64,000 nt of DNA from contig CAWELX010000001.1 of NCBI GenBank assembly GCA_963810065.1, positions 142,819-206,818 of the forward strand. Reading direction: 5' to 3'. Shown here piece after piece: positions 20,060 to 36,037 of this stretch. The notes under the pieces are model-generated. The model was not told the DNA's origin and ran no database searches. It saw only the letters and a list, made by a program, of their open reading frames with translations. Position 1 is the stretch's first letter. The number at the start of each line of letters is the position of its first letter. Source of the stretch: an uncultured Chloroflexia bacterium (GTDB lineage Bacteria; Chloroflexota; Limnocylindria; Limnocylindrales; CSP1-4). Position numbers and translations under genes: made by a program.

Positions 20060-20221
20060 CCCACCGGCCACCCCCCGGCGCGTCCTGCGCTACGCTCCGC
20101 GGGTTCCGGCCGCGCCGCAACGAGCCCCGCCACGACGAGCCCAGCCAAGCCAGCCGCGCAACCACCTGCCCCGCCACGACGAGCCCGGCCACCCCCAGCC
20201 CCGCCAGCACCACGGAGTCCA

Positions 20222-20924: not shown

Positions 20925-23900
20925 TCAGGCGGACGCGGCCATCTCGTCGCCGTCGGCCGTCAGCGACAGGTCCACGAGCCCCGGCCGCAGGCGTCTGGTG
21001 ACCTCCGCCATCAGCTCGGCGTCGTAGGCCACGCCGACCCGCAGCTCCATCGGGAGGGCGGGCCGCCCCGTGCCCTGCGGCAGGTGGATCGTGACGCGCG
21101 TGGCGCCCGGGCGGCCGCGCAGGACGTCGCGGACCTCCGCCATGGCGGCCTGGAGGTCCTCCGTCGGGAGGCCGGCGGAGAAGCGCACGTGCAGGCATCC
21201 CCCGGGACCGGCTTCCCGCGGGACGGTGGGGGCGGCCTCCGTCCGAAGGGCCGCGGCGCGCGTCTCCTCCGGGAACGCGGGCTCGTCGCGGTCGGGGGCG
21301 ACGGCTGCGAGATCGGCCGGCCCGGCGGATCCGGGCACGGGCCCGGGAGCATGGACCGTGGGCTCGCCGGGCGCACCGGCGCCACCCGGGCCGTCCAGTT
21401 CGCCTGCGCCGGGCGGCTCGATGGGCGCGCTGGCGCGGATCGGCGACGTGCGCGGCGGCCCCTCCGTGGGAGCTGCGCGACGCGGCGCGCCACCCGGGCC
21501 CACGCCACCACCCGCGCCGAGGCCAGCGCTGCCGCCGCCCGCACCCGGGCCCGGCGCGCGCACGGGAGGGCGGCCTGCGTCGGGCGCGCCTCCCCGCCCG
21601 TTGCCGTTGCCGCCCGGCCGACCGCGGGGCCGGCCCCGGTCGGCGGCCGCGACCTCCGCGGCGAACGACTCCTCGCCCGCGACCGACGCGGCGTCGAAGT
21701 CCCGGACCATGTCGGCCAGCAGCGACACCTCCTCGCCCCGGTGGTCGATGCGCCCGCCAACCAGGAGGATGGCGCCGTCCTGCCAGGTGGGGCCGGTCTG
21801 CTCGTAGAGCCTCGGGAAGACCACCACCTCGATGGAGCCCTGCAGGTCCTCGAGCGTCACGATGGCCATCGTGGAGCGCGACTTCGTCACCACGGAACGG
21901 ATGCCCGTCACCACGCCGCCGACGACGATGTGCTCGCCGTCGAGCGACTCGTCCTTGAGGTCGCCCGAATACGCCGTGACGAACTTCCCGATCCGCTCCG
22001 CCACCTCGCCGAGCGGGTGGTCCGAGAGGTAGAGGCCCAGGAGCTCCTTCTCCCAGCGCAGCCGCTCGCGGACCGGGACCTCCGTGGCCGCCGGCAGCGG
22101 CGCTTCGAGGGCGGCCGGCTCGGCCGCCAGGTCGAAGAAGCTGATCTGGCCCGAGGCCCGTTCGCGCTGGTCGGACTGGGCGGCGGCGAGGACGTCGTCG
22201 AGGGCCAGGAGCAGCTGGGCCGGGTGCCCGAACGCGTTGAGCGCCCCGACCTTGACCAGCGACTCCAGGACCCGCTTGTTCACCAGCCGCAGGTCGATCC
22301 GGTTGCAGAAGTCGGCGAACGAGCGGAACGGGCCGTCCGCCTCGCGGGCGGCGATGATCGATTCGATCGCGCCGTGCCCGACGTTCTTGACCGCCAGCAG
22401 CCCGAAGCGGATCGCGGCGCCCTCGACGGTGAACTCCAGGTGGCTGGCGTGGACGTCCGGCGGCAGGACGGCGATCCCCAGGCGGCGGCACTCGGCGACG
22501 GCGGCGGCCACCTTCTCGGCGTTGTCCCGGAACGCTGTGAGCACGCTGGCCATGTACTCGACGGTGTAGTTGGCCTTGAGGTAGGCCGTCTGGTAGGCCA
22601 CCAGGCCATAGGTGGTCGCGTGGGCCTTGTTGAACCCGTAGCGCTCGAAGGGCTCGAAGGCCTTGAAGACGGCGTCGATCGTCTCGGGCCGCACGCCGCG
22701 CTCGCCCGCCTGGGTCACGAACTGGTCCTTCATGGAGCGCAGGACGCTCGACTTCTTCTTGCGGATGGCGTAGCCCAGGGTGTCCGCCTCGGGGCCGCTG
22801 AAGCCGCCGAGGGCGACCGCCGCGGCCATGATGTCCTCCTGGTACACGAAGATGCCGTACGTCCGCTCCAGGAACGGCTCCAGCAGCGGGTGCAGGTAGG
22901 TCACCTTCTCCTGGCCGTGCTTGCGCCGGATGTAGGCGGGGATGTTGTCCATGGGCCCCGGCCGGTACAGGGCCACCATGGCGGCCAGGTCGTAGACCGA
23001 GGTCGGGCGGAGCTCGCGGATGTAGCGCCGCATGCCCGCGGATTCCAGCTGGAAGACGCCCGTCGTCTCGCCGGAGGCCAGGAGCTCGAATGTCCGGGTG
23101 TCATCGAGGGGGATCCGGTCCAGGTCGATCTCCACGCCGCGCTGCTCCCGGACGAGGTCCACCGCCGCGCGCAGGATCGTGAGGTTCGAGAGCCCCAGGA
23201 AGTCGAACTTGAGGAGCCCCAGCGCCTCGATCCCGTGCATCTCGTACTGGGTCATCGCGGCGTCGGAGTTCGTGGCCCGCTGGAGCGGCATCAGCTCGGT
23301 GAGCGGCTCGCGGCTGATCACGACGCCCGCGGCATGCGTGGAGGCGTTGCGGGCGACGCCCTCCAGCTGCTTCGCGAAGTCGATGATGCGGCGCACGGAC
23401 GGGTCGCCGGTGTACATCTCCTTCAGCTGCGGGCTGGTCTCCAGGGCCTCGTCCAGCTTGATCCCCAGCTGGTTCGGAACCGCCTTGGCGATCCGGTCGA
23501 CGTCGCCGTAGGAGCTCCCCAGGACCCGCCCCACGTCACGGATGGCGGCTCGGGCGAGCATCGTGCCGAAGGTGATGATCTGGGCCACGTGGTCGGCGCC
23601 GTACTTGCGGGTGACGTAGTTGATGACCTCGTCGCGCCGGCCGTCCTCGAAGTCCACGTCGATGTCGGGCATCGTCACGCGGTCGGGGTTGAGGAACCGC
23701 TCGAACGGCAGCTGGTAGTGGATCGGGTCCACCGGTGTGATGCCCAGGGTGTACGTCACGATCGATCCCGGGGCGCTGCCGCGGCAGGAGGTCTGGATCC
23801 CCTGCTCGCGGGCGAAACGGACGAAGTCGGCCACGATCAGGAAGTAGCCGGCGTAGTCCATCCGGGTGATGACCCCGAGCTCGTAGTCCAGGCGCCCCTG

Positions 23901-24866
23901 GAGCTCCGGGGTCACGGTCCCGTAGCGGCGGGCCAGGCCTCGCTCACACTCGGCCCGCAGCCAGCTGTCGACGGTCTCGCCCTCGGGCACCGGGAAGTGC
24001 GGGATGCGCAGCTGCCCCAGCGGCAGCTCCAGGTCCACCATCTCGGCGATCCGGCGCGTGTTGAGGTAGGCCTCGCGCTGCTCCGGGAAGAGCGCGAACA
24101 TCTCCGCGGCCGACTTCAGGTAGAACTCGGCGCCCTCGAACTTCATCCGGTTGGGCGTGTCCAGGTTGCTGCCCGTGCCGACGCAGAGCAGGACATCGTG
24201 GGCCTCCGCCTGCGCCCGGTGGACGTAGTGGAGGTCGTTGGTCACGACCAGCGGCAGGCCGGCCTCCGGCGCCAGGCGCAGGAGCTGCTCGTTGAGGCGG
24301 GCCTGCTCCGGGATGCCGTGGTCCTGCAACTCCAGGTAGAAGTTGCCCGTGCCGAAGATGTCGCCATACTCGCCGGCCAGCCGGCGGGCCTGCTCCCAGT
24401 CGTCCACCTCCAGGGCCTTCGGGATCTCGCCGCCCAGGCAGGCCGAGAGGCCCACGAGCCCCTCCGCGTGGCGGGCGAGGAGCTCCCGGTCGATCCGCGG
24501 CTTGTAGTAGTAGCCGTCGAGGTGGGCGTCCGTCAGGAGCCGGGTCAGGTTCCGGTACCCGACGAGGTCCTTGGCCAGCAGGACGAGGTGGAAGGGCTGG
24601 GAATCTGCCTTCCCCTCCTTGTCGCGCATGGAGCGGCGGGCGATGTAGGTCTCCACGCCGATGATCGGCTTGATGCCCTTGGACTTCGCCGCCTGGTAGA
24701 AGGCGACAGCCCCGTACAGTGCGCCGTGGTCGGTCAGGGCGAGGGAGTCGAAGCCCAGCCGCTCGGCCTCGTCGACGAGATCGGTGATCCGGCCGAGACC
24801 GTCGAGGAGCGAGAACTCGGAATGGACATGGAGATGCGAAAAATCTTGAGGCCGGAGGGTCGTCAC
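20925..24866 (-). CDS. dnaE: DNA polymerase III alpha subunit with ~140-aa Gly/Pro-rich C-terminal extension
   Basis: PHP N-terminus (V/M)TTLRPQDFSHLHVHSEFSLLDG. GTG start at 24864-24866 with an in-frame TGA two codons upstream. Core polymerase and OB-fold regions are intact. Confidence 0.9.
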   Translation of the reverse strand: MTTLRPQDFSHLHVHSEFSLLDGLGRITDLVDEAERLGFDSLALTDHGALYGAVAFYQAAKSKGIKPIIGVETYIARRSMRDKEGKADSQPFHLVLLAKDLVGYRNLTRLLTDAHLDGYYYKPRIDRELLARHAEGLVGLSACLGGEIPKALEVDDWEQARRLAGEYGDIFGTGNFYLELQDHGIPEQARLNEQLLRLAPEAGLPLVVTNDLHYVHRAQAEAHDVLLCVGTGSNLDTPNRMKFEGAEFYLKSAAEMFALFPEQREAYLNTRRIAEMVDLELPLGQLRIPHFPVPEGETVDSWLRAECERGLARRYGTVTPELQGRLDYELGVITRMDYAGYFLIVADFVRFAREQGIQTSCRGSAPGSIVTYTLGITPVDPIHYQLPFERFLNPDRVTMPDIDVDFEDGRRDEVINYVTRKYGADHVAQIITFGTMLARAAIRDVGRVLGSSYGDVDRIAKAVPNQLGIKLDEALETSPQLKEMYTGDPSVRRIIDFAKQLEGVARNASTHAAGVVISREPLTELMPLQRATNSDAAMTQYEMHGIEALGLLKFDFLGLSNLTILRAAVDLVREQRGVEIDLDRIPLDDTRTFELLASGETTGVFQLESAGMRRYIRELRPTSVYDLAAMVALYRPGPMDNIPAYIRRKHGQEKVTYLHPLLEPFLERTYGIFVYQEDIMAAAVALGGFSGPEADTLGYAIRKKKSSVLRSMKDQFVTQAGERGVRPETIDAVFKAFEPFERYGFNKAHATTYGLVAYQTAYLKANYTVEYMASVLTAFRDNAEKVAAAVAECRRLGIAVLPPDVHASHLEFTVEGAAIRFGLLAVKNVGHGAIESIIAAREADGPFRSFADFCNRIDLRLVNKRVLESLVKVGALNAFGHPAQLLLALDDVLAAAQSDQRERASGQISFFDLAAEPAALEAPLPAATEVPVRERLRWEKELLGLYLSDHPLGEVAERIGKFVTAYSGDLKDESLDGEHIVVGGVVTGIRSVVTKSRSTMAIVTLEDLQGSIEVVVFPRLYEQTGPTWQDGAILLVGGRIDHRGEEVSLLADMVRDFDAASVAGEESFAAEVAAADRGRPRGRPGGNGNGRGGAPDAGRPPVRAPGPGAGGGSAGLGAGGGVGPGGAPRRAAPTEGPPRTSPIRASAPIEPPGAGELDGPGGAGAPGEPTVHAPGPVPGSAGPADLAAVAPDRDEPAFPEETRAAALRTEAAPTVPREAGPGGCLHVRFSAGLPTEDLQAAMAEVRDVLRGRPGATRVTIHLPQGTGRPALPMELRVGVAYDAELMAEVTRRLRPGLVDLSLTADGDEMAASA

Positions 24867-24890
24867 GGGAGGTCAATGGTAGCCGGGCGA
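24847..24890. repeat. dnaE-start repeat copy A (functional copy: 7 dnaE codons plus 24 bp of 5'UTR)
   Basis: TGAGGCCGGAGGGTCGTCACGGGAGGTCAATGGTAGCCGGGCGA. Confidence 0.85.
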
Positions 24891-24933
24891 GCGCAGGGGC
24901 TGGTGGGTGCGCGGCGCGGAGGAGTGGGTCGTG

Positions 24934-26403
24934 CTAGCCGTGGAAGTTGAACGCCGGATACCGTCCTGCTGGGAGAGGTTCGGCCGGATCGCCCTTTCGC
25001 CACTGCGACTCGTATTCGATGAACGCGCCGTCGTCGTCGTTGGTGATTCCGAGATTGACCCACCAGCCCCCGAGTCCTGCCCAGTAGTCGAGCCACTCAA
25101 CACCGTCACCCCACGGGCCCGTTCGGTCGCCGTATGTGTCGGGTTCGATCGCGGTGCCGGGATAGGTGGCTGGCATCACCCGCAGGCCCTCGATTCCACC
25201 AGGCAGCGTGTAGCGCCTGGCCAGGATCCGCAGACAGCCATTGACATAGGCGAGATGGTCCGCCAGCGGCGCGTCGCTGCCGTCGGGTCCGCGAGGCCAC
25301 TCCTCGTCGGTCAAGGTTCCGGTCGCGGTGCTTCGCGCCGGAGGCATGCGGTCCCGGAAGAACACGAACGCGTCGCCGACGCCCTCCTCGCGGGTCCGCC
25401 CCCTCCAGTCTCGGGGTGCCGCCGGTACAGCGCCGGGCGCGTCGGAGGGCAGCGTGACCGACGGCACGCTGCGGTCCGGCTGGGTCCAGCCATCGGTCGC
25501 TGCCGCTCTCATCGCCTGGTCGGCGACCTCGTAGAGATGGCCAAGGTCATCATCGGGACCCGTCGGCCGGGCTACGCCGATGCTCAGCTCCACCGGCTCA
25601 TCGTCGATCGGCTGCCCGACGGCAGCCCTCAAGTTGTCGACATAGGCGCGAACAGCGGTGGCATCCGGCAAACGGATGGCGATCAGGAACTCGTCGCCGC
25701 CGATCCGAAAGACAACCCCGGGATCGGCGACCTTCGAGAGGCGCTCGGCGACCCTGAGGAGATGGGCATTACCCACCCGGTAGCCGTGCCGGTAGTTGAT
25801 CTCCTGGAGGCCCCGATAGTCGACCATGACGAACGCGAGGTCATCCGGCACGGGGTCGAGCCATCGTGCCACGCTCTCCGGCGTGAATGAGAGACCGGAT
25901 CCAGGAGACGACGGGCCACTCCAGACGGGTGGCAGCCGCGTCGTGTCGTCCAGCTGCTCGACCAGGTAGCCCTCGACGACCTCCGGCCATCCGGCGATCG
26001 CCTCGAGGAAGGCGTTGGTCGTGAGCTGGTCGCGGACGACCAGCGCCTGCGCGATCGATGGAGCCAGGCGTGCGAGGTGGGGCAGGCTCACCGTGCTGGC
26101 CTGGCCAGGAACCTCCATCCGGACGCTGCCGTCGTCACGCGGCGCGACGGCGAGAAGCGCGTAGTGGCCGGCCTCGTACCAGGCGAGCAGCCTCCCCGAG
26201 GCCTCCGCGGCGGGACGCGTGCTGGGCCAGGATCGCCCGTCTGGTCCGGGCGTCGACCAAGGCGAGCCATGCGAACCAATGGTCAGGTTCTCGCCGATCG
26301 CCTCTTCGAGCTCCCACAGGGCCTGGTCGTCACGAGCGGCCAGATCCGCGATGAAGGCCGCCACCTGGGCGCCTCGCGGCCCGTAGTCCGGCATCGAGGT
26401 CAT
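24934..26403 (-). CDS. GGDEF-domain protein (putative diguanylate cyclase) with uncharacterised N- and C-terminal (~170 aa) regions
   Basis: VMVDYRGLQEINYRHGYRVGNAHLLRVAERLSKVADPGVVFRIGGDEFLIAIRL contains the GGDEF active-site motif. Confidence 0.75.
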   Translation of the reverse strand: MTSMPDYGPRGAQVAAFIADLAARDDQALWELEEAIGENLTIGSHGSPWSTPGPDGRSWPSTRPAAEASGRLLAWYEAGHYALLAVAPRDDGSVRMEVPGQASTVSLPHLARLAPSIAQALVVRDQLTTNAFLEAIAGWPEVVEGYLVEQLDDTTRLPPVWSGPSSPGSGLSFTPESVARWLDPVPDDLAFVMVDYRGLQEINYRHGYRVGNAHLLRVAERLSKVADPGVVFRIGGDEFLIAIRLPDATAVRAYVDNLRAAVGQPIDDEPVELSIGVARPTGPDDDLGHLYEVADQAMRAAATDGWTQPDRSVPSVTLPSDAPGAVPAAPRDWRGRTREEGVGDAFVFFRDRMPPARSTATGTLTDEEWPRGPDGSDAPLADHLAYVNGCLRILARRYTLPGGIEGLRVMPATYPGTAIEPDTYGDRTGPWGDGVEWLDYWAGLGGWWVNLGITNDDDGAFIEYESQWRKGDPAEPLPAGRYPAFNFHG

Positions 26404-26681
26404 GCGCCGATCGTCGACCCCACGGCTCGGGCGCGCAATGGGCCGATTGTCAGTGCTTCCCTGGTTGGCTCAGCCGTGGTTCGGTGCGATGAACCTCGAT
26501 TCGGGCGGCCGCATCTCCAGGACCGCGCCTGGCTCGAGCGGCCCGAACCCGTCGACCACCCAAATGCCAGCCAGCTGTCGCCGCACATGAACATCCTCGT
26601 GCGTCAAGGACGGTTGGTAAGTCCCGACGCCACAGGCAGCCACCCCTTGACCAGGCGACGAAGGTCATCGACAGTGGAGCC

Positions 26682-27053
26682 GTGGCAGACGACGGCAACC
26701 CACCCGATCCAGACCAACTGCTGCGCGTCAGGGCGGCGTTCGTGATCGCGTCGACCGGCGTCGTCCTCGGTGCCATCCTGCTCGCCAGCGGCGACACCGA
26801 TGGTGCGCGGTTGGCGTTCTTCCTGCTGCTGTGGGCGGTCTCACTCCTGCCGCGGACGCGGACGCAGCGGCTTGTCGTCGGGTCAGGGTTCCTGGCCCTG
26901 ATCGGGCTGTTGCTCTGGCAGGCGAGCCGAACGCGGGATGAGTTCGGGCTGCCGGAGACGCCATCAACCGTCCTCATGGCTGGGCTGGCGATCGCGTCGT
27001 TCATGGGCGCGGTCGCGTGTCTCGTCCTCGCCCGGCACTGGAGGCAGCTGTGA
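26682..27053 (+). CDS. Small hypothetical membrane protein
   Basis: Three predicted TM helices (VIASTGVVLGAILLASG, AFFLLLWAVSLL, LMAGLAIASFMGAVACLVLA). Confidence 0.35.
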   Translation: MADDGNPPDPDQLLRVRAAFVIASTGVVLGAILLASGDTDGARLAFFLLLWAVSLLPRTRTQRLVVGSGFLALIGLLLWQASRTRDEFGLPETPSTVLMAGLAIASFMGAVACLVLARHWRQL

Positions 27054-27209
27054 CGCTCGCTGCGCCGGCCACGGGCGCATCTGCCGGGCGGCGTGGTTGT
27101 CCTCTTGGGTGGCAGCCATCTACTGCCGCTGGTCGCAGGGTCCGCTCTTGACCCGTGACGAGCTGGGTCATCTCGCCGAGGTGCTGGCCCCGGACGCGTA
27201 GGCCCCGGA

Positions 27210-29147
27210 TCAGGCCGCGCGCCGCCCCTGCGCCTTCGCCTTGCGGCGGCAAAGCGGGCACCCGACGGGCAGCTTCGCGCGGGTGAAGGGCGACATCTTG
27301 TAGGCCGGGTGCTCGGGGTCGTCGGGGCAGATCCAGCGCACGGTCTTGTCGTAGGTCGCCTTGATCTTGTCCGGGCGGAGCGGCGCGTTTGCGTGCGCGT
27401 CCCATTCGCGCTCGAGGTCCGGCCGGACCGCAGCGAGCGCGTTGAGGCCGTCCGCGCGCTCGGTGGAGCACCGCTGGCAGCGGGTCTGGCGCACCGTCCG
27501 CTGGGCAACCTCTGCCTCCCACGTATGGCCGCAGCGGTGGCACTTCCAGTGCGCCTTGTAGCCGGATCCGGCCTTGACCGATGAGGCGAGCCGGTTGTTC
27601 GCCACGCTGTCCCAGTCGCGCAGGACGAGCGGGAAGTCGGTGAGCATCCTGCCCGCGACCTTGACCGAGGCGGTCGTGCGGCCCGGCGTGACGGTCGCCT
27701 CCATCGGCGGCAGCCCGATCTCCGCGAGCGAGGCGTTGAGCGCGGCGACGTTGGCGATCACCGAGCGCGCCTTCGCCGCCGCGTCGTAGGTCGCCTTGCC
27801 CTTCGCCGCCCGGTCGTGGGCATCGACGATGAGCTGGCCGATCGAGCACAGCGTGCCACGCGGGTCGTGGCGGGCGGTCCAGGCGAAGTGCTGGTCGGGG
27901 CGCAGGTCGCGCATCGTGGCCTTGACGATGCCGCCGAACGTGGCGAGGTCGGCCTGGCCCGCGTGGTAGGCGCGCACGAGCGCGAGCACGAGTTGGAGCC
28001 GGCCCGCGTTGCGGAGCGAGTAGCGCCGGCGCTTCCCGAACCGGCGGTCGATCCAGTCGAGGATCCGCTCGGCGGCGGCGTTGCTCCGGGGGAAGCCGAA
28101 GAACTGGCGGTGGAGGCCGACCTGCTGGCGGATGAGGGCGTCGTTCGTGCGGCACCAGCCGTCGAGCGCGACGGCCTGCCGAGCGACGGCGAAGGCGCGG
28201 AGCGCGTCCCAGTCGTGGTTCGACCACTGGGCCTTGCGGAATAGCTCGACGTTGGCCGGGTCGTCGGGGTTGTTTCCGTCGTTGCGGGCGTGCTCGCGGA
28301 TGAGCCGCCCGAGGTGGAACTCGCACGAGTAGAAGTTGGCGTTGGGCCATCGCCGCTGCGCCGCGTTGGCGATCGCGCCCGCACCGTCCGCGACCACCCA
28401 CTCGGGGCCGTCGCCGCCGGGGTCGATCTCGTCGAGGAAGTCGATCCAGGAGCGCCCGGTCTCGTCGGGGGCGAGGCCGATCCGCCAGGGCATCATCGCC
28501 TGCTTGGGGTCGTCGCCGCCGACCGCGATGAGCACCGCGCCGCCGCGCTCGTCGGCATTCCAGGTCGGGTCGAAGCCCTCCGCGCCGTATGCGCGCAGGT
28601 TGAGCGGCTTGGAGTCGAGGATGAGGATGCGCGGGCACCTCGACGGCGCGAGCGACTTGTCGATCGCCGTGCCGAAGAGGTCGAGGTAGCGGGCGGCGAG
28701 GGTGTGCTGGCGGCTCGCGTGCCGCATCTTGTGGCCGTCCTCGACGTAGCGGTGGGCTTCGAGCCGGATCGTGCGGCTCGCCCGCCGGAGCGACATCCCC
28801 TGCGCGACGAGCTGGAGCAGGTGCGCGATCTCGATGGCCGTGTGGAGGTAGTCGGGCGGCGAGATCGGCCCCTGGGCGACGCCGGGCTTCACGTCGCAGG
28901 TGAGGCACTCCGAGCCCGGGCCGTGCGCGTCGCTCGGGCGGCGTCGTCCGAGCGAGAAGGTGTGCGGATCCGAGCCGTCATCGGGCGCGCAGCGGAACCG
29001 CTGACGGCGGTAGGGCGCGCTCGTCCAGTCCCGCCGGCCCCACAGGGTGATGCTGCCCTGGTGTCCCTTCGAGCACGTCGTCGGGCGGTTGGCGATCACG
29101 AGCCTCGGTCGCCCCGTCCTGCCCGTGCCCGTCGCTGTCCCGTCCAT
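27210..29147 (-). CDS. MULE/IS256-family (Mutator-like) DDE transposase homolog with N-terminal Cys cluster and two C-terminal zinc-ribbon motifs
   Basis: MULE core ILILDSKPL...DETGRSWIDFLDEI...WVVADGAGAIANAAQRRWPNANFYSCEFHLGRLIRE (D...E-x-SW...DG-x-G...P-x-A...C-x-x-H). C-terminal WKCHRCGHTWEAEV...CQRCS and WICPDD...VGCPLCRR are DUF4379-like zinc ribbons. Confidence 0.6.
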   Translation of the reverse strand: MDGTATGTGRTGRPRLVIANRPTTCSKGHQGSITLWGRRDWTSAPYRRQRFRCAPDDGSDPHTFSLGRRRPSDAHGPGSECLTCDVKPGVAQGPISPPDYLHTAIEIAHLLQLVAQGMSLRRASRTIRLEAHRYVEDGHKMRHASRQHTLAARYLDLFGTAIDKSLAPSRCPRILILDSKPLNLRAYGAEGFDPTWNADERGGAVLIAVGGDDPKQAMMPWRIGLAPDETGRSWIDFLDEIDPGGDGPEWVVADGAGAIANAAQRRWPNANFYSCEFHLGRLIREHARNDGNNPDDPANVELFRKAQWSNHDWDALRAFAVARQAVALDGWCRTNDALIRQQVGLHRQFFGFPRSNAAAERILDWIDRRFGKRRRYSLRNAGRLQLVLALVRAYHAGQADLATFGGIVKATMRDLRPDQHFAWTARHDPRGTLCSIGQLIVDAHDRAAKGKATYDAAAKARSVIANVAALNASLAEIGLPPMEATVTPGRTTASVKVAGRMLTDFPLVLRDWDSVANNRLASSVKAGSGYKAHWKCHRCGHTWEAEVAQRTVRQTRCQRCSTERADGLNALAAVRPDLEREWDAHANAPLRPDKIKATYDKTVRWICPDDPEHPAYKMSPFTRAKLPVGCPLCRRKAKAQGRRAA

Positions 29148-29248
29148 CGTTGCGAGCGTGCCGCAGGCCTGCGACAGGTTCTATGGCACAGATGGGGTGG
29201 GACTTAGCAACCGTCCTTGACGCACAAGTGAACACCCGGCTATTGACA

Positions 29249-29312
29249 GGTGGAGCTGCGAAGAGTACTGAGGCCGGAGGGTCGTCATGGGATGTCAATG
29301 GTAGCCGGGCGA
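29249..29312. repeat. dnaE-start repeat copy B
   Basis: GGTGGAGCTGCGAAGAGTAC-TGAGGCCGGAGGGTCGTCATGGGATGTCAATGGTAGCCGGGCGA. Minus-strand reading gives MTTLRPQYSSQLHLS. Confidence 0.85.
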
Positions 29313-31077
29313 TCAGGGGGCGCGGTGAGATGGACGGTTGAGCGTGACACTCCCACCACCAACGGCGATGACCAGCCGCTCCCCCACCCCGCCAGCCGCG
29401 GCACGCCGCCCCTCGCTCATGGTAGCTGCCCGTAGCACGGGGCCACGGTTCGACAATGCTGACGGGCCATCAGCATTCGGCCGTCCGACGGATCCGCCTC
29501 GCACCGGCGTCGCCGATCATGGATGCTTTGTGCGAGTTCCTCACCATGGAGACCTGGATGCCATGCGCGTGCGTGATGCCGACACTGCCCGTGGAGAGCT
29601 CGAACGGCATTATCTGGCTCGTCTACCGTCGCCCCGCAACCGGCGGGAGGCCACGCCGCTGGCCCTGTTGGCCCGCCGGGGGCCGGCGGCGACCGCGAAC
29701 GATGCGCACCACGGGGAGGCGACCTTCGAAAGCGGCCGGAGCGAGGGCTAGCGATGCCGAACGGGGGCCGCGACTGCTGCGGCGAGTGTGTCTTCAACCC
29801 GGCGAGCGTCGTGAGGACCGGCGGGGCCGCCTCCGAAGCGCTCACGCACGAAGCGGCGTTCTGCGAGATCCGGTCCGAGCTGCCCGTCGCCGACCCGTTC
29901 TACACCTACTGTGCGAACTTCCACACCGTCTCGCCCGCGCCCGACGGTCCCGTCTTCGCCGGCTTCCATGAATTCGGGCGTCTTCCCTGGCACGGCTCGG
30001 AGCCGGTCCGCCTGGCCCAGCGGCCTGGAAATCTCCGGTCTCGTTGTCTCTGACGGTGGAGCCGACCGCGAGTTCGCGGACCCCGCCGCGTACCTGGCCT
30101 GGTGGCGCAGCGCGCACTCGGGCGAGGACCCCGAGTACCCGTGGACGCTCCACGAGCGGATGCTGCCGCCGTCGATGCGCGCCGAGGGCCGCGACGCCCC
30201 CTCCGCGATGGAGCGCCTCCGGGCGCTGGTCGGGCGTGGCGGGGGGACCGCGCGCCGGCGCCCGCCGCCGCCCCTCGACGAGTCGATCCCGGACGCCTGG
30301 CAGCGACGCTGGGAGTGGTGGAGGGCGCTCGGCCACGAGGGGCGAGCGGACTGGTTCCTGGGCCGCGCTCTCGCCATCCTCGGCCTGGACGACGTGGAGG
30401 AACGCCTGGCCGACAAGAGGGTGGAGCATCGCCCAAGTGCCCACGTCGTGGAGGCGTGGCACGCCTGGCTGCTGCGAACAACGGAGGGGGTTGTGGAGCT
30501 GGCCGCGCACGTCGAGAGTCCGACCGCAACGGCGTTCCGGGCATTTCGGTCCTTGAACGTGGATCCCGATCTTGTCGCAGCGTATCGCGACATCTGGCTC
30601 CGGCCGCCGGACGACCCGCTGCGGAACGGCGACGAGGCGAAGGTCATCGCGGGCGCGCTGGCCGAGCAGGTCCGCGATCTCGACGCGGGAACGTATCGCT
30701 ACTGGCCCACGCTTCCCGCGGCTTCTGAGGACGACATCCGGGCGCGCGGCTTCGATCCGCGGCGCGTGGTCGTCCTTGGCTTCGCGGCCGAGGAGCGTGA
30801 TGGCTCGCCGGCCACCTCCGTCCCGGTTCCGTGGATCGGGCGGGTCACCCTGTGGCGGCGGGGTTCGGAGTCCGTCTTCGTCGAGGGGGCCATCGTCGAG
30901 ACCTGTGACCCGGCACTTGACCCCGAGGCGCACGCGAAGTCACGTCATGTTCACGAGGAGAACGTTCGCCGGCTTCGGGAGCGGCTCGACGCCTACGCGT
31001 CGACTGACGGACGTGGAGGTGCCTGAGCGGCGCACCTGACGGTTCAGCGAGTCGTGCGTGAACTCCTGCCCATTGGC
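29313..31077 (+). mobile_element. Putative older, degraded inserted segment E1 between repeat copies B and C
   Basis: Bounded by copies B and C. Its only sizeable gene is frameshifted. Confidence 0.3.
29754..31026 (+). CDS. Hypothetical protein with N-terminal CCGEC motif; frameshift near 30040
   Basis: MPNGGRDCCGECVFNP... (frame 29754..30053) continues as ...GLEISGLVVSDGGADREFADPAAYLAWW... in frame 29911..31026. Confidence 0.35.
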
Positions 31078-31138
31078 GGGTGGAGCTGGCAGAATCCTGA
31101 GGCCGGAGGGTCGTCACGGGAGGTCAATGGTAGCCGGG
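31078..31138. repeat. dnaE-start repeat copy C
   Basis: GGTGGAGCTGGCAGAATCC-TGAGGCCGGAGGGTCGTCACGGGAGGTCAATGGTAGCCGGG. Minus-strand reading gives VTTLRPQDSASSTR. Confidence 0.85.
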
Positions 31139-31186
31139 GTGGCGGGGTCCGGCCGACAACCGCGGCGGACCGCGGCCGGCCGAACC

Positions 31187-31207
31187 TCCCCCCCTCGGCG
31201 GGGGGAT
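31187..31207 (-). terminator. Hairpin CCCCCCC-TCGGC-GGGGGG, 35 bp downstream of the SDR stop
   Basis: Perfect 6-7 bp G/C stem. Confidence 0.4.
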
Positions 31208-31238
31208 GCTCGACGGCCCGCCCCTGGACCGGCGCGGC

Positions 31239-32027
31239 CTATTGCGCGGTCCAGCCCCCGTCGACCGGCAGGACGGCGCCCGTCACCAGGCCCGACGCCC
31301 GGGAGGCCAGGAAGACGACCACGGCCGCGACGTCGGCGGTCGTGCCGACCCGGCCGATGGGGATCCGTGCGAGGACTTCGGCGAGAAACGCCGGGTCGTC
31401 GAGGCGCTCGGCAGTCCCGGGCGTGTAGATCCAGGTGGGCGCGATCGCGTTGACCGTCACCCCGTGCGGCGCCCACTCGAGCGCGAGGACCTTGGTCAGC
31501 AGGTTCACGCCGCCCTTGCTCGCGGAGTAGACCGCGTGGCGCCGGATGCCGACGAGCCCGGCCTGCGAGCTCACGTTGACGATGCGCCCATAGCCTCGCT
31601 CGACCATGTGGCGACCGACGGCCTGGCTGACGAAGAAGACGCCCTTGAGGTTGACGGCCATCATCTCGTCCCAGTCGGCCTCGGTGACATCGAGCGCGTC
31701 GTGATTCGCTCCGAGGCCCGCGTTGTTGACGAGAATGTCGATCCGGCCGTACGAGGCGACCGCCACGTCGACCGCGGCCCTGGTGGCGCCGACATCCGTC
31801 ACATCGATGCGGAACGGCTCCACCTGCCCGCCGTCCGGGGCGCTCCAGGCGACCTCGCTCGGGCTGGCGTCGCGGACGCCGGCGAGGACGTGGGCGCCGC
31901 AGGCCGCCAGCGCCCGCGCGAGGTCGCGGCCGATCCCACGGCCGGCACCGGTCACGAGGGCAACCTGCCCGGTCAGGTCGAAGTCCGGTCGCTGGATGGG
32001 AGCTCCTCCGCTTCGTCCGCGGCGCAA
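31239..32027 (-). CDS. Short-chain dehydrogenase/reductase (SDR)
   Basis: Cofactor-binding motif TGAGRGIG. NNAG motif. Catalytic YSASK. Confidence 0.8.
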   Translation of the reverse strand: MRRGRSGGAPIQRPDFDLTGQVALVTGAGRGIGRDLARALAACGAHVLAGVRDASPSEVAWSAPDGGQVEPFRIDVTDVGATRAAVDVAVASYGRIDILVNNAGLGANHDALDVTEADWDEMMAVNLKGVFFVSQAVGRHMVERGYGRIVNVSSQAGLVGIRRHAVYSASKGGVNLLTKVLALEWAPHGVTVNAIAPTWIYTPGTAERLDDPAFLAEVLARIPIGRVGTTADVAAVVVFLASRASGLVTGAVLPVDGGWTAQ

Positions 32028-32060
32028 GGGCGGGCGCGGGTCGTCGGGCGCGGCCCGGCG

Positions 32061-32273
32061 TCAGTCCTCGACGGCCAGCATGACCTCGGTCGACTTGATG
32101 ACCGCCACCACGCGCTTGCCCGGCTCGAGCCCGAGCCGTCGGGCGGATTCGGCCGTGATCGCCGACACGAGCTCATGCCCGCCGTCCACGTCGATCACGA
32201 CCTCGGCCATGACCTGGTCCCCGGTCACCGTGCGGACCGTGCCGGGCAGCTGGTTTCGCGCGCTGATCCTCAT
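32061..32273 (-). CDS. Molybdopterin-binding TOBE-domain protein (Mop-like)
   Basis: MRISARNQLPGTVRTVTGDQVMAEVVIDVDGG...VIKSTEVMLAVED is typical of single-TOBE Mop proteins. Confidence 0.7.
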   Translation of the reverse strand: MRISARNQLPGTVRTVTGDQVMAEVVIDVDGGHELVSAITAESARRLGLEPGKRVVAVIKSTEVMLAVED

Positions 32274-32509
32274 CGACTCACTCCCTGCTGTGTTGCGCCG
32301 TCGGGGGCCTGCGCCCCGTCCGGCAATTCCCTTGTCGCGGCTGACCCGGCGGCGGATGGAGAGCCGGCCGTCATCGCCGCCGCCATGCCGGCGCCGCGCG
32401 GCCAGTCGTGCGGCTCCCCACGGTCAGTCGTGCGACGCCGCGCCATGGTCGCACACCGCCGGCGCCACGTCCCGAATCGCGCGGATCCGTCCAGCCGTGC
32501 GCGCGGCGC

Positions 32510-33364
32510 TCAGGCGACGGCCCGCGCGTCGAGCACGCGGCTCCAGTGGAAGACGCGGACGGCCAGCAGGACGCCGAACGCCGCGAGCACCAGGATCGCC
32601 GCCGCCGCGATCGACGCGTCGAGGTTGCCGCCCTGGAACTCGCCGTAGACCACGAGCGGCAGGGTCTGGGTCCGACCCTCCACGTTCCCGGCGAACATGA
32701 TCGTGGCGCCGAACTCCCCGAGCGAGCGCGCCCAGCTCATCGTCAGGCCCGCCGCGAGCGCAGACCCGGCCAGGGGAACCGTGACCGCGCTGAAGAGCCG
32801 GCGCTCGGATGCCCCGTCCACGCGTGCCGCGTCCTCCAGGTCGCGGTCGACGCCGGCGATCCCGGTCCGCGCCGAGCGGATGAAGAACGGGGCGGAGACG
32901 AACACCTGGGCCAGGATCACGGCGACCGTCGTGAACGGCACGGAGATGCCGAGGAACGTGAAAGGCGCCGCGAGCAGCCCGTGCCGGCCGAAGACCAGGA
33001 GCAGGGCCAACCCGGCAACCGCCGGCGGCAGGACGATGGGGAGGTCCACGGTCGCCTCCACCAGGCCCTTGCCGCGAAACCGCCGGCGGGCGAGGACGAA
33101 GGCGAGCGGCAGCCCGAGCGTCACGGTGATGACGAGGCTGATGGCGGTCGTGACGAGGCTCAGCCAGAGGGCGTCGAGGACGACGGGCGAGGCGATCGCG
33201 ACCCGCAGCGACCCGTCGAGGATCGCCCGGGCCACCAGGGTGAGCACGGGTAGCCCGAGGAAGAGGGCGAAGAGGGCCGCGAGGGCCACGAGCGAGCGCT
33301 CCCCCCAGCGCCCCGGGACGTGATGATCCACCGCGGGACGGGCGACCTCCACCGGCGGTCCCAT
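32510..33364 (-). CDS. modB: Molybdate ABC transporter permease
   Basis: Permease EAA-like region. Adjacent to modA and mop. Confidence 0.7.
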   Translation of the reverse strand: MGPPVEVARPAVDHHVPGRWGERSLVALAALFALFLGLPVLTLVARAILDGSLRVAIASPVVLDALWLSLVTTAISLVITVTLGLPLAFVLARRRFRGKGLVEATVDLPIVLPPAVAGLALLLVFGRHGLLAAPFTFLGISVPFTTVAVILAQVFVSAPFFIRSARTGIAGVDRDLEDAARVDGASERRLFSAVTVPLAGSALAAGLTMSWARSLGEFGATIMFAGNVEGRTQTLPLVVYGEFQGGNLDASIAAAAILVLAAFGVLLAVRVFHWSRVLDARAVA

Positions 33365-33387
33365 GGCGCGTGCGCCAGCCTCCTCGA

Positions 33388-34245
33388 TCACGGCGGGGCC
33401 AGGAAGCCGAAGCTGCCCAGGATCGCCTGGCCGTCCGGTCCCGCGAGCCATGCGAGGAAGGCCCGGGCGGCGGCGGCGTTCTCGGACGCCTTGACGACGA
33501 CGCCGGCATAGGTCGCAAGGACGTTCGCCGCGTCGGGAACGTCGACGGTCGCGACCTTCGTCGACGCCGCGGCGTCGGTGACGTACACGATGCCGGCGTC
33601 GCCCTCGCCGAGCTCCAGCTTGGCGACCACGGCCCTCGCGTTGTCCTCCTTCGTCACGATGTTGGCGGCGTAGGCCGCGGCGAAGTCCGCCGGGTAGCCG
33701 GGCTCCTTCGCGAGGTTGTCGACCAGCTGCGTGGCGTACTTCGTGATGGGCACTTCGTCACCGGCGGCGATGATCTTCACGCCGGCCGTCGCGAGGTCGG
33801 CCGGCGTGGTGATCCCGGCCGGGTTGTCGATCGGGACGATCACGGTCAGCTTGTTGCCGGCGAAGCTGACGGCCGGCCCGTCCGTCAGCCCCTCGTCGAC
33901 GAGCGCCCGCGGATTCTTCGTGTCGGCAGAGAGGAAGACGTCGGCCGGGGCGCCCTGCTCGATCTTCGTCGCGAGCGCCGAGGAAGCATCGGTCGAAATG
34001 GTCAGCGTGGTGCCCGGGACCGCGGCCTCGTAGGCGGCTTTCGCCTTCTCCAGCGCTCCCTTGAGCGACGCCGCGCCGTAGATGGTCAGGTCGACCGCGG
34101 CCGGCGGCGTCGCCGACGCAGGCGCGCTCGAGGGAGCGGCCGCCGGCGTCGCGGACGGGCTGCTCGGCGACGACGATGTACCGCCCGAGCAGGCCGCTAC
34201 GATGCAGGCCACGATGGCGACGAGGGCGGCGCGTCGGGATCTCAT
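33388..34245 (-). CDS. modA: Molybdate ABC transporter substrate-binding lipoprotein
   Basis: Lipobox VAACSGG with Pro/Ser linker. ModA-like body (IYGAASLKGALE...FLSADTKNP...). Start placed at the ATG of MRSRRAALVA (34245). Confidence 0.75.
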   Translation of the reverse strand: MRSRRAALVAIVACIVAACSGGTSSSPSSPSATPAAAPSSAPASATPPAAVDLTIYGAASLKGALEKAKAAYEAAVPGTTLTISTDASSALATKIEQGAPADVFLSADTKNPRALVDEGLTDGPAVSFAGNKLTVIVPIDNPAGITTPADLATAGVKIIAAGDEVPITKYATQLVDNLAKEPGYPADFAAAYAANIVTKEDNARAVVAKLELGEGDAGIVYVTDAAASTKVATVDVPDAANVLATYAGVVVKASENAAAARAFLAWLAGPDGQAILGSFGFLAPP

Positions 34246-34351
34246 GGTCGAGATCTCATCGTCGGCTTCTCCGGTGGCGGGATCGCATGGCGCGTTTCCA
34301 GATAGTAGCCGATGATTGACTACTCCAAGGCAAGGGATCGTCAGGAGCAAG

Positions 34352-34906
34352 ATGCGCCCACCCAGGACGGAGCTGAACCTCACCGAGTGGGTGGTGCTCG
34401 CGCTCGCGAGCGAGGCCCCGATCCACGGCTGGACGATCGTCCGGGCCGTCCGCCGGGGCGGCCCCATCGGCGAGGCCTGGTCCAGCTCCGGGCCGCTCGT
34501 CTACCGGGCGATCTCCCGGCTCCAGGAGGTCGGCCTCCTGCGACCCGTGGGCCTGGCCGAGGGGCAGGGCCCCAACCGGGTCATCCTCGAGGCCACGCCG
34601 GCGGGCGCGGAGATGGTCGCGGCGTGGCTCCAGCAGCCCGTGGACCACGTCCGCGAGGTGCGCACCGCGTTCCTGGTGAAGCTGCTCCTCCTGGAGCGTC
34701 GCGGCGAGGACCGGCGCGCGCTCGTCCGGCGCCAGCGAGAGCGGCTCGCGCCGGTGATCGCGGGGCTCGCCGAGCGCGCCGCCGCCGCGACGGGCCCCGA
34801 ACGGCCGGTGGCAATCTGGCGCGCCATGAACGCGGAGGCCGTGATGCGGTTCCTCGACGCGATCGACCACGACCGTCCCACAGGGTTCGCTGACCCGGCG
34901 CCCTGA
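34352..34906 (+). CDS. PadR-family transcriptional regulator
   Basis: Winged HTH LTEWVVLALASEAPIHGWTIVRAV. SD AGGAG. Divergent from modA. Confidence 0.65.
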   Translation: MRPPRTELNLTEWVVLALASEAPIHGWTIVRAVRRGGPIGEAWSSSGPLVYRAISRLQEVGLLRPVGLAEGQGPNRVILEATPAGAEMVAAWLQQPVDHVREVRTAFLVKLLLLERRGEDRRALVRRQRERLAPVIAGLAERAAAATGPERPVAIWRAMNAEAVMRFLDAIDHDRPTGFADPAP

Positions 34907-35007
34907 CCGCCGGGGCGACCGCGACGTCCTGGGCGGCGCCGCAGGCGCCCGCTCGTCTCCAGGGGTTGTCGCGAGAAGTCGAGGGTTCAGGTGTGCGAAG
35001 GCTGGCC

Positions 35008-35892
35008 TCAGCCCGCTGCCGCGACCTCGTGGACGATGGCGTCCAGCGCCTCCTTCGCCTCGGGCAGGAAGTCGAAGAACGTCCACACGTGCACCATCCC
35101 CGATGCCTCCCGGATCGAGAGCTCCCAGGCCGGCAGGCTCGCCGCCACCGTCGCCAGCCGGCGCGCGTCCGCGACAAGCTGGTCGTCGCCACCGCAGTAG
35201 ACCGTCGTTGGCGGGAGCCCTGAGAGGTCGGCGAACAGCGGACTGGCCCGCGGGTCGTTCACACCCTCGGCGCCCGCGTACAGTCGACCGGCGTGCAGGA
35301 GGCTCGCGCGCGACAGGATGTGGTCCCGGCGATCCAGGTCGACGCCGGCCGCGGATGTCATCCCCACGTCGAGCCACGGAGACAGGAGGACCAGGCGCGC
35401 GGGCGGGGCCAGGCGCTGGTCGCGCGCGGCCACGGCAACGCTCAGCGCCAGGCCGGCCCCGGCTGAGTCCCCCATCACGACGAGCGGTCGTCCTGCGGCG
35501 ACGAGGTCCGCGTGAAGGTCGACCGTCCAGGCCAGCGTCGTGGGCACGGTGCTCCCGGGAGCCAGCGGGTACTCGGGTGCGGACACCGACGCGCCGGTGC
35601 GCCGGACGAGCTGCGCGATGAAGTGCCAGTGCACGCTCTCGAACCCACCGACGTACGCGCCGCCGTGCAGGTACAGCACGTGCGGCGCACCGACACGCCC
35701 GTCGCGAGGCTCCAGGTGCCACACGGCGTGACCGGCGCGCGACGTGCGCGTCACGACCGCGACGTCGGCCACTTCTGACCCGGGCTCGGCCGACACGAAC
35801 GGGCGGCGGCCGGCGATGCGCTCCTCGAAGCCGTGGCGCTGCCGGGTGACGCGCAGGATGATGTCGAGCAGTCGTGCCTGCGCGCTCTTCAT
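35008..35892 (-). CDS. Alpha/beta hydrolase fold-3 esterase/lipase
   Basis: Oxyanion HGGAY. Nucleophile GDSAG. Confidence 0.7.
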   Translation of the reverse strand: MKSAQARLLDIILRVTRQRHGFEERIAGRRPFVSAEPGSEVADVAVVTRTSRAGHAVWHLEPRDGRVGAPHVLYLHGGAYVGGFESVHWHFIAQLVRRTGASVSAPEYPLAPGSTVPTTLAWTVDLHADLVAAGRPLVVMGDSAGAGLALSVAVAARDQRLAPPARLVLLSPWLDVGMTSAAGVDLDRRDHILSRASLLHAGRLYAGAEGVNDPRASPLFADLSGLPPTTVYCGGDDQLVADARRLATVAASLPAWELSIREASGMVHVWTFFDFLPEAKEALDAIVHEVAAAG

Positions 35893-36037
35893 GCAGCCAT
35901 CCTGACAGGTCCGAGCGGCGGTCCCGGCGGCGAGGCACGCTCCGTTGAGGGGTTTGGGCCCGGCGGCTGCGCGTTGCGGCGGCTACTCGGTGAGGTCGAT
36001 GCGCCGGCCCTCGCCGCGTCGGCGGTACGCTGCGCGC

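Follow-up and report, generated by a model that had tools for sequence, protein, structure and literature searches.

Integron arrays, whether chromosomal or in clusters of attC sites lacking integron integrases (CALIN), are long, co-oriented series of mostly one-gene cassettes of ∼1 kb that lie between sites of ∼60–140 bp. Their cargo is rich in toxin-antitoxin pairs, hydrolases and genes of unknown function, and the cassettes, which carry no recombinase of their own, are shuffled between genomes and sit beside a fixed platform that supplies a promoter. In these respects they resemble the arrays described here, which lie at the start of dnaE (DNA polymerase III alpha) in a 64-kb stretch of chromosome from an uncultured member of Candidatus Limnocylindria (Chloroflexota; contig CAWELX010000001.1), hereafter the window, and in related genomes. 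An initial annotation of the window had found three direct copies of the dnaE start and had explained them by two related elements that integrated one after the other. The copies very probably (∼85% by our estimate) mark the junctions of an array of gene cassettes whose anchor is the dnaE 5′ end. The clade-wide array is real and apparently undescribed: the literature yielded nothing relevant on integration at dnaE or about cassette arrays of Limnocylindria, and no published description was found.

Other systems offer partial parallels. Islands that replace the 5′ end of their target, such as SXT/R391 in prfC and the dusA islands, bring a look-alike of the target promoter and first codons and leave behind direct repeats and a target gene that works from a new 5′ end; they measure 20–100 kb and encode their own tyrosine integrase next to the attachment (att) site. 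In tandem accretion, for which the cis-mobilisable elements (CIMEs) of Streptococcus thermophilus and the ssrA islands of Dehalococcoides provide comparisons, successive integrations at one att site give arrays split by att repeats, and non-autonomous members need an integrase in trans. Modules that depend on XerCD, namely integrative mobile elements exploiting Xer (IMEX) at dif and the pdif modules of Acinetobacter plasmids, use a 28-bp dif-like site (11-6-11) recognized by the host enzymes XerC and XerD and combine small, recombinase-free cargo with short palindromic sites around an asymmetric 6-bp spacer. Orphan toxin/immunity cassettes 3′ of rhs and cdiA are displaced modules that start with a fragment of the main gene after incoming DNA has recombined at a conserved stretch. 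Integration into the end of the target gene is documented for dusA-specific islands (PMC8409611), and tandem SGI1 forms an array at one att site (PMC2297512).

Results

Direct copies of the dnaE start in the window

The dnaE gene of the window (20925–24866, minus strand) encodes a 1313-residue protein that starts MTTLRPQDFSHLHVHSEFS and is 80–88% identical at the nucleotide level to dnaE of relatives, homologs of its product containing PHP and DNA_pol3_alpha domains. DnaE homologs at 81–83% identity bear names that assign the window to Candidatus Limnocylindrales/Limnocylindria. Its open reading frame (ORF) is intact, i.e., the gene has been restored despite the insertions. The initial observation of three dnaE-start repeats is confirmed: a 41-bp core, TGAGGCCGGAGGGTCGTCACGGGAGGTCAATGGTAGCCGGG, occurs in three direct copies on one strand, at 24847–24887 (copy A, no mismatches), 29269–29309 (copy B, two mismatches) and 31098–31138 (copy C, identical to A), where the chance expectation is 0 and none of 100 shuffles gave a match. 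A repeat search of the window returned a 77-nt family at the same three positions. By a profile built from the copies, the core, previously sized at ∼40–45 bp, is present but is only part of a repeat of ∼100 bp, here called R, which spans dnaE from −32 to about codon 21 (GAGTTC.CGC) and matches the window at 24792–24900, 29219–29328 and 31050–31159.

Copy A (24792–24900; minus strand, as are the others) is the functional dnaE 5′ end. It holds the segment that we call Block 1 (GGCTACCATTGACCTCCCGTGACGACCCTC), a −10-like TACCAT at 24876–24881, the GTG start codon 9 nt further on (complement of 24864–24866) and, as its right half, the first ∼21 dnaE codons. Copies B (29229–29328 as aligned, with an ATG start) and C (31050–31159, the most distal) are displaced. 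Both differ from true dnaE by a common arm, CTCCACC.G.CAAT.G....GAGTTC, that replaces CTCCATGTCCATTCCGAGTTC and is 5 nt longer; the arm of copy B (CAGCTCCACCTGTCAATAGCCGGGTGTTCA) is decayed and interrupted by an insertion sequence (IS), and that of copy C (CAGCTCCACCCGCCAATGGGCAGGAGTTCACGCACGA) is decayed and has a 1-nt deletion in codon ∼10. The sequences of B and C do read as the decayed mimics of the DnaE N-terminus that had been proposed, and the repeat search and alignment reproduce the staggered sharing of flanks among the three copies. R was found nowhere else in the window or in ∼0.6 Mb of related loci, and the stretch between copy C and the Zincin_1 gene upstream of it contains no fourth, degenerate repeat even at E<100.

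Arrays and empty sites within the clade

The R profile was used to search 47 dnaE loci of this one clade, the window included. Seven of them, the window and six relatives, carry two to nine copies directly upstream of dnaE: three each in the window, L001 and L002 (L numbers denote related loci), two in L004, six in L082, nine in L089 and at least nine in L090. All 35 copies are co-oriented with dnaE, with none inverted, and each locus has one contiguous array that ends at dnaE. Empty sites are the rule, as ∼29 loci that have at least 2 kb of upstream sequence contain only the single functional copy. The single-copy upstream region that the insertion proposal predicted thus exists in relatives, and together with the six other arrays, whose cargo differs, these sites support tandem insertion at the dnaE 5′ end with the copies as junction repeats. 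Unrelated DNA between the copies of relatives, which had been named as a potential refutation, does occur; taken with the empty sites and the shared cassettes, it points to a hotspot and not away from one.

Successive copies are 0.2–3.6 kb apart (median ∼1 kb) and enclose one or two genes per interval. The cargo includes Phd/PIN and VapBC toxin-antitoxin pairs, extracytoplasmic function (ECF) sigma factors with partners, alpha/beta-hydrolases, beta-lactamase-family proteins, a methyltransferase and many unknowns. The arrays are limited to a clade in which DnaE identity is 77–92% over the first 350 residues; array-bearing contigs include ena:ERZ25039554:contig_24684, ena:ERZ25039492:contig_2402 and CAVXSS010000004.1.

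Block 1 looks like a conserved promoter with a leaderless start, and about two-thirds of the cargo genes are co-directional with the displaced Block 1, as duplicated regulatory modules would be if a dnaE promoter or operator co-regulated its neighbors. Such modules fit poorly with copies that include ∼60 nt of dnaE coding sequence and that occur only upstream of dnaE, and many cargo genes, including the gene between copies B and C, lie on the opposite strand. An assembly artefact, the other way in which the copies might be trivial, is at odds with their recurrence in assemblies made independently by several sources (JGI metagenome, ENA, Logan). We regard regulatory duplication or artefact as the least likely of all the explanations considered here.

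Architecture of the repeat

Alignment of the 35 copies divides R into four segments. The first is Block 1. Most of 36 single-copy relatives keep the arrangement TACCAT-N9-start before dnaE and conserve nothing farther upstream; no sigma-70 consensus promoter was found in 24700–31400. This conservation suggests that TACCAT is the −10 box of a leaderless or near-leaderless dnaE mRNA, which would explain the absent Shine-Dalgarno sequence at the dnaE start. The second segment comprises the hypervariable codons 5–8 (types APND, RPQD and S.RD), and the third is TTC.CGCA. The fourth distinguishes the two classes of copy. Functional copies read CAY CTC CAC GTC CAC TCN GAG TTC, the HxH motif of the PHP domain, whereas displaced copies read CAG CTCCAC CTGTCAATAG GTGG GAGTTC ACGCACGA, with CAG in place of the dnaE His codon CAY in 20 of 25 listed arms. 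The 5-nt-longer arm (CAGCTCCACCTGTCAATAGGTGGGAGTTC; signature CAGCTCCACCKGTCAATAGGTGGGAGTT) is found in every alignable full-length displaced copy (∼26) and in none of six functional copies aligned alongside. Its outer end is uniform (...GCACGA; boundary GAGTTC.CGCACGA), with no conservation beyond, and mean identity within it is 87%. Block 1 and the arm form two near-identical tracts of ∼28–30 bp. Because this derived arm is shared, the displaced copies across genomes descend from one another and not from the dnaE of their own host. About two-thirds of arms contain the palindrome CTCCACCT-GTCAAT-AGGTGGGAG. A terminator-like hairpin at the left edge of the repeats was not found (mean z −0.23, against −0.24 for random 45-mers).

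Several displaced copies (L004 1030–1105, L089 1190–1270, L001 4580–4660 on the minus strand, and L090 8760–8835) have a start codon and an open frame that runs to a common TGA beyond the arm, giving V/M-TTLAPNDFTQLHLSIGGSSRT[ND]*, ∼24 residues. This could be a conserved leaderless mini-ORF 5′ of the cargo or a by-product of conservation at the DNA level.

Cassettes are shared, shuffled and joined within R

The dnaE-proximal cassette of the window includes a 137-aa gene of unknown function (24934–25347, minus strand). Together with its 3′ flank and the start of copy A, the gene lies in a segment (24826–25348) that matches L082 5923–6446 at 91.4% identity; in L082 this segment is the fourth cassette from dnaE, between L082 copies E and D and 3.6 kb from dnaE. 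The homology ends within ∼2 nt of the 137-aa gene's ATG at 25347. Homologs of the protein are mostly stand-alone and 124–137 residues long, and the family recurs beside dnaE in L089 and in the L090 array, where it is followed by a Phd/PIN cassette as in L082. Cassettes present in more than one context thus include those of the 137-aa gene (window, L082, L089, L090), Phd/PIN (L082, L090) and the beta-lactamase family (L004, L082). L004 and L090 have VapBC cassettes that are 94% identical, and an ECF-sigma cassette that is distal in L089 follows the Phd/PIN cassette in L090. From the sequence comparison, the window/L082 cassette may plausibly have been transferred horizontally in the recent past.

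L082 and L090 have in common a 1.65-kb block of two cassettes, 92% identical, with differing cassettes on either side. Both ends of the block lie inside R, between the variable codons 5–8 and CGCAG, and coincide within ∼10 nt; overall, synteny breaks in R fall between dnaE codons ∼8 and ∼12. Three genomes pair the arm variant GAGT(T/C)TGAGC with the 137-aa cassette that lies downstream of this arm, and the 5′ halves of those repeats differ. Since cassettes are shared and shuffled with breaks inside R, we take the mobile unit to be [arm – cargo – Block 1 + codons 1–8] and each repeat in an array to be a hybrid of two units. The initial annotation had described hybrids as well (A as L0-core-R2, and so on), and that part of its scheme stands; the exchange points that can be mapped lie not inside the core, as it had supposed, but at the dnaE-coding edge of the core or beyond, at codons ∼8–12.

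The variable codons also bear on the origin of the present dnaE 5′ end. DnaE N-termini of type RPQD occur in one of 47 functional copies, that of the window, and in 7 of 29 displaced copies, five of the seven in other genomes (Fisher p=0.004, for copies that are not independent). In L002 the copy farthest from dnaE carries a variant of the S.R type, resembling that of the functional dnaE in L003, a close relative. Either pattern fits a scenario in which incoming cassettes replaced the dnaE promoter and first codons. The proposal that an inserted element donated the present promoter and 5′ end gains support in the same way, as the DNA just upstream of dnaE is cassette DNA (91% identical to L082) and the RPQD type is otherwise confined to displaced copies. 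On this evidence the first ∼8 residues and the promoter of DnaE appear to be horizontally exchangeable.

No recombinase is encoded by the arrays

A Pfam scan of 47 window proteins detected no integrase or recombinase, and the ∼25 cassettes of the seven arrays contained none either. None was present in the fetched flanks of L001, L002, L004, L082, L089 and L090, the distal ends of some arrays lying beyond the fetched DNA, nor within 10 kb on either side of dnaE in L082 or of a 134-aa cassette gene in L089. Neither the repeat nor the arm matched any viral contig, phage record or plasmid record.

These results bear on the literal form of the initial model, in which the two inserted segments are remnants of classical integrative elements (prophage, integrative and conjugative element, or island) whose integrases and most other DNA were later deleted. 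Direct repeats of a target-gene end with restoration of the 5′ end are typical of integrase-borne islands such as SXT in prfC and the dusA islands, and the window cargo does look degraded, with a frameshift, an IS and decayed arms. Remnants of large elements would not be expected, however, to be uniformly small (median ∼1 kb) and to recur intact in several genomes, and no integrase, excisionase, phage or conjugation gene is found in any of the ∼25 cassettes, nor the repeat in viral contigs or in phage and plasmid records. We therefore consider decayed integrase islands unlikely. The two inserted segments, described initially as related elements, are integrase-less one-gene cassettes, and the dnaE-proximal one of the two is not a single element but a composite of a GGDEF gene, the separate 137-aa cassette gene and the IS.

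Two more specific enzymatic readings were rejected. A large serine integrase had been suggested by the 5-bp difference in length between the arm and dnaE, but the other half-site, being coding, cannot and does not differ in length. Crossover inside the palindrome spacer fails because it would shift the reading frame of dnaE, which contains no matching spacer.

An insertion sequence in copy B

The IS that splits copy B is 2.6 kb long (26596–29228), with 30-bp terminal inverted repeats (26596–26625 and 29199–29228) that are 93% complementary. It is flanked by an 8-bp target duplication, TGAACATC at 26588–26595 and TGAACACC at 29229–29236, which agrees at seven of eight positions. When it is removed, the outer end of the copy B arm (26570–26595, minus strand), now cut off from the rest, restores an alignment with the other arms. 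The element encodes a 645-aa transposase (27210–29147, minus strand) and a 123-aa ORF (26682–27053, plus strand). The transposase is MULE/Mutator-like by weak Pfam matches (MULE, 5.2e-06, 27.2 bits with a cutoff of 27.6; Transposase_mut, 0.0039, 16.6 bits with a cutoff of 21) and contains DUF4379 zinc fingers (E=2.3e-23). Inverted repeats, 8-bp duplication and transposase type are together those of an IS256/Mutator-like element, the transposase match being weak.

Could this transposase act on the arms and move the cassettes, with the IS as the autonomous partner? Two independent repeats, window copy B (26588–29236) and the copy-C equivalent in L091 (1795–1835), each contain at an identical arm position, after ..AAC.[TC]C, an element with a terminal inverted repeat that is the same in both (CT[CT]GTGCGTCAAGGACGG...), and the IS terminus TTGACGCACGAG resembles the arm at its outer end (in several copies TT.ACGCACGA; consensus, GCACGA). 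The latter similarity is short (6–10 nt) and was found post hoc, and IS ends occur in only two of eight array-bearing contigs. Moreover, the cassette junctions are ∼100-bp repeats instead of 8-bp target duplications with inverted ends, and all repeats are direct, whereas a DDE transposase needs inverted ends. An IS-driven mechanism is accordingly very unlikely. Some insertion sequences, the IS1111-attC group, specifically target integron recombination sites, and the shared position suggests that this IS targets the repeats of the array in much the same manner.

The window array and its surroundings

From dnaE outward the window would read as dnaE, copy A, the 137-aa and GGDEF genes with an IS that arrived later, copy B, a frameshifted gene of a 421-aa type, and copy C. 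The diguanylate-cyclase-like GGDEF gene (25348–26403, minus strand; Pfam GGDEF, E=3e-14) is joined in frame to the 137-aa gene, with no repeat between the two, and the listing of ORFs merges them into a 489-aa read-through; judged from the homologs, this ‘GGDEF protein’ is two genes read through in frame. A terminator-like hairpin at 25366–25384, followed by an unusual T-rich run, lies just 5′ of the ATG of the 137-aa gene. The cargo between B and C (29754–31026, plus strand, opposite to dnaE) belongs to no Pfam family and consists of ORFs of 99 and 371 residues split by a frameshift; an intact 421-aa homolog in L091 (75% amino acid and 82% nucleotide identity) is bordered by a repeat copy and by the beginning of an arm. 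With an IS in copy B and decayed arms in B and C, the array of the window looks partly fossilised.

Beyond copy C lie an SDR gene (31239–32027), ModB-like (32510–33451) and ModA-like (33388–34467) genes, all on the minus strand, a PadR-like gene (34316–34906, plus) and an alpha/beta-hydrolase gene (35008–35892, minus), each assigned by Pfam. They are followed by the Zincin_1 gene (36037–36476, plus), apparently frameshifted, of which 36146–36476 matches L003 3766–4095 at 81% and whose Pfam assignment comes from the L003 homolog. The frameshifts in this gene and in the B–C cargo, relative to intact homologs, may be assembly errors rather than marks of pseudogenes, because the related long-read assemblies L084, L085 and L089 split dnaE likewise.

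In relatives the Zincin_1 gene is the conserved upstream neighbor of dnaE, at a distance of 73 bp in L083, ∼0.5 kb in L003 and 1–1.4 kb in L086 and L088, and it marks the far edge of the variable region. The SDR/ModA/ModB/PadR/hydrolase stretch (31160–36036) is absent from L003 and L083. Since Zincin_1 lies ∼5 kb past copy C in the window, 31.2–36.0 kb is variable DNA too; copy C may thus not be the original chromosomal junction for which the initial annotation took it, the conserved neighbor being at ∼36.0–36.5 kb. The whole Zincin_1–dnaE interval is a variable hotspot that extends beyond its repeat-bounded part.

A gene for a DUF5674 protein and a 110-aa partner gene form the dnaE-proximal cassette in L002 (3687–4432); the same cassette appears as an internally deleted fusion beside dnaE in L003 (4235–4543), and in L004 a 66-bp remnant of it (80–145) lies upstream of the array, a series that therefore records decay of a cassette in place.

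GC content at third codon positions is 0.81–0.85 in the cargo genes and 0.93–0.97 in core genes, and the rest of the window is core chromosome, with polA, fpg, gatB and genes for transporters. Neither the SDR protein of the window nor protein P0135 is on record as an exact sequence, and an Rfam search of 24000–32500 for known RNA families gave chance-level matches only. Near its C-terminus (20925–21900, minus strand; GC up to 0.82), DnaE contains a long Gly/Pro/Ala/Arg-rich low-complexity stretch, in which identity to relatives collapses, and then a final conserved segment. Further 3′ of dnaE, between peptidase-like and TerB genes, a 42-nt C-rich unit (CCGGCCGCGCC...GAGCCCAGCCA) is present in three overlapping direct copies at 20106–20206.

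Discussion

How cassettes may enter

We propose that a non-autonomous cassette would consist of an arm (a look-alike of dnaE codons 9–21 that is 5 nt longer and often palindromic), cargo of one or two genes, and a segment that mimics the dnaE 5′ end with the −10 box TACCAT, a start codon and the first ∼8 codons. Entry would occur by reciprocal (Campbell-type) recombination between the mimic on a cassette, presumably in circular form, and the resident dnaE 5′ end, with exchange at about codons 8–12. As a result, dnaE would be rebuilt on the promoter and first codons of the cassette, the old 5′ end would move upstream and become fused to the cassette arm, and the cargo would come to lie downstream of the displaced dnaE promoter; repeated entry would stack cassettes. 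The evidence for reciprocal recombination at the repeat is good. We favor a site-preferring recombinase acting in trans, as for integron cassettes or cis-mobilisable elements, on three counts: the arrays advance by one gene per repeat, the derived arm is conserved up to an invariant outer edge, and breakpoints coincide. This is a commitment by inference that we hold tentatively, at slightly less than even odds for a trans-acting, site-specific enzyme; the full explanation, in which a cassette array is served by a dedicated recombinase encoded elsewhere in the genome, we regard as evenly balanced.

Host homologous recombination over the two ∼28–30-bp identity tracts, with no dedicated enzyme, is a serious rival. 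The first arm-bearing repeat would have arisen when the dnaE 5′ end was partly duplicated in an ancestor, and repeat-bounded segments would then have been moved, duplicated and deleted within and between related genomes through single crossover of excised circles, double crossover via a donor repeat and the dnaE body, unequal crossing-over or gene conversion. No recombinase lies near any array, and the near-identical Block 1 and arm tracts could support RecA-type exchange. The segment between these tracts shuffles as an independent module, at least one breakpoint lies outside the codon 8–12 zone, the palindrome lacks structural covariation, and the arrays are confined to one clade with 77–92% DnaE identity. 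Homologous recombination does not by itself explain the regularity of one gene per repeat over as many as nine units and ∼25 cargos, which requires that a repeat be added with each gene. Nor would it be expected to preserve the derived arm and its outer boundary in all aligned full-length displaced copies, which do not code for DnaE, or to place both ends of the L082/L090 block within ∼10 nt of each other's position and outside the longest identity tract, Block 1. We consider this explanation possible, with the odds clearly against it.

Several observations weigh against a cassette array moved by site-specific recombination. ‘Site-specific’ is what we infer, no recombinase having been found in the arrays or in their fetched flanks. 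Breakpoints are mappable in few cases only, and at the right end of the 137-aa cassette the break between window and L082 sequence lies upstream of Block 1, so that gene conversion between copies is likely. The identity of this cassette in the two genomes (91–92%) is barely above that of conserved dnaE segments (88–91%). About a quarter of the scorable arms (∼6/25) lack the palindrome and are of type AGCTCCGAG instead, and the palindrome shows no compensatory changes (one compensatory cell against 0.8 expected); selection for an arm hairpin was rejected on these two grounds. L086 and L088 have extra genes upstream of dnaE with no repeats, and L003 keeps a remnant of the L002 cassette beside dnaE without a distal repeat; not all variation is therefore repeat-bounded. 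Finally, the decayed arms of copies B and C mean that the array of the window is possibly no longer active.

If arrays of this kind are active, they would represent a second, independently evolved solution to the integron task of stockpiling and expressing single-gene cassettes at one chromosomal site, and the site is an unexpected one, the start of an essential gene that needs to be rebuilt at every insertion. Active arrays would also offer a tractable case of how cassettes acquire recombination sites, an open question for integrons, point to a recombinase still to be discovered for which a ∼100-bp substrate is defined, and serve as a marker of accessory-gene flux in Limnocylindria, an abundant uncultured group of soil and freshwater. 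If only homologous recombination is at work, the locus still shows clearly, in a natural setting, how a duplicated gene end, though short, can seed a self-perpetuating insertion hotspot.

Comparison with known systems

Set beside 5′-end-replacing islands, the dnaE arrays have direct att-like repeats that include the end of the target gene and restore it; SXT and the dusA islands differ from them in size and in encoding an integrase, since the dnaE units are ∼1 kb, contain no element-encoded integrase in ∼25 cassettes and are stacked up to eight deep. The cassettes are CIME-like in being flanked by att-type repeats and devoid of recombination genes. CIME-type systems, however, have a known autonomous, integrase-bearing partner for the same site, and none was found in the fetched dnaE loci, viral contigs, phages or plasmids.

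The arm palindrome (8-6-9, spacer GTCAAT) is unlike the dif consensus, which may not be the dif of this clade, and the arrays differ further from XerCD modules in that their site is at dnaE and not the terminus and about a quarter of the arms are non-palindromic. Relative to the rhs and cdiA orphans they are a mirror image, with 5′ ends displaced upstream; what they carry has no relation to the anchor gene, and a derived arm is common to the displaced fragments.

The arrays are co-oriented and mostly of single-ORF cassettes, as in integrons, the cargo being only about two-thirds co-directional. No integron integrase (intI) or attI was found, and no recombinase domain was detected in the 47 window proteins scanned or in the arrays and flanks of L001, L002, L004, L082, L089 and L090. 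The repeats contain no attC R′′/R′ GTTRRRY boxes. Five of six displaced copies fold as single strands no better than shuffles, and R itself holds only a local 8-bp hairpin; in the exception, L002:430–540 (z=−4.2), the score comes from a GC hairpin that lies upstream and is not part of the arm. R is conserved in sequence, whereas attC sites, imperfect inverted repeats (R′′-L′′...L′-R′) that fold as single strands, are conserved in structure, and the platform of the dnaE arrays, unlike that of integrons, is the 5′ end of an essential gene that is rebuilt at each insertion.

In behavior the dnaE arrays are closest to integron arrays and to tandem non-autonomous integrative elements, but no integron integrase, attC-like fold or, in the loci fetched, integrase-bearing partner was found. 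We suggest tentatively, with the odds clearly against so complete a scheme, that they may be an undescribed gene-capture platform, integron-like in function and differently built: the dnaE promoter and first codons would serve as attachment site, each cassette would supply a replacement 5′ end and a conserved arm, a recombinase other than that of integrons would act in trans, and each insertion would rewrite the DnaE N-terminus and place the cargo under the displaced dnaE promoter.

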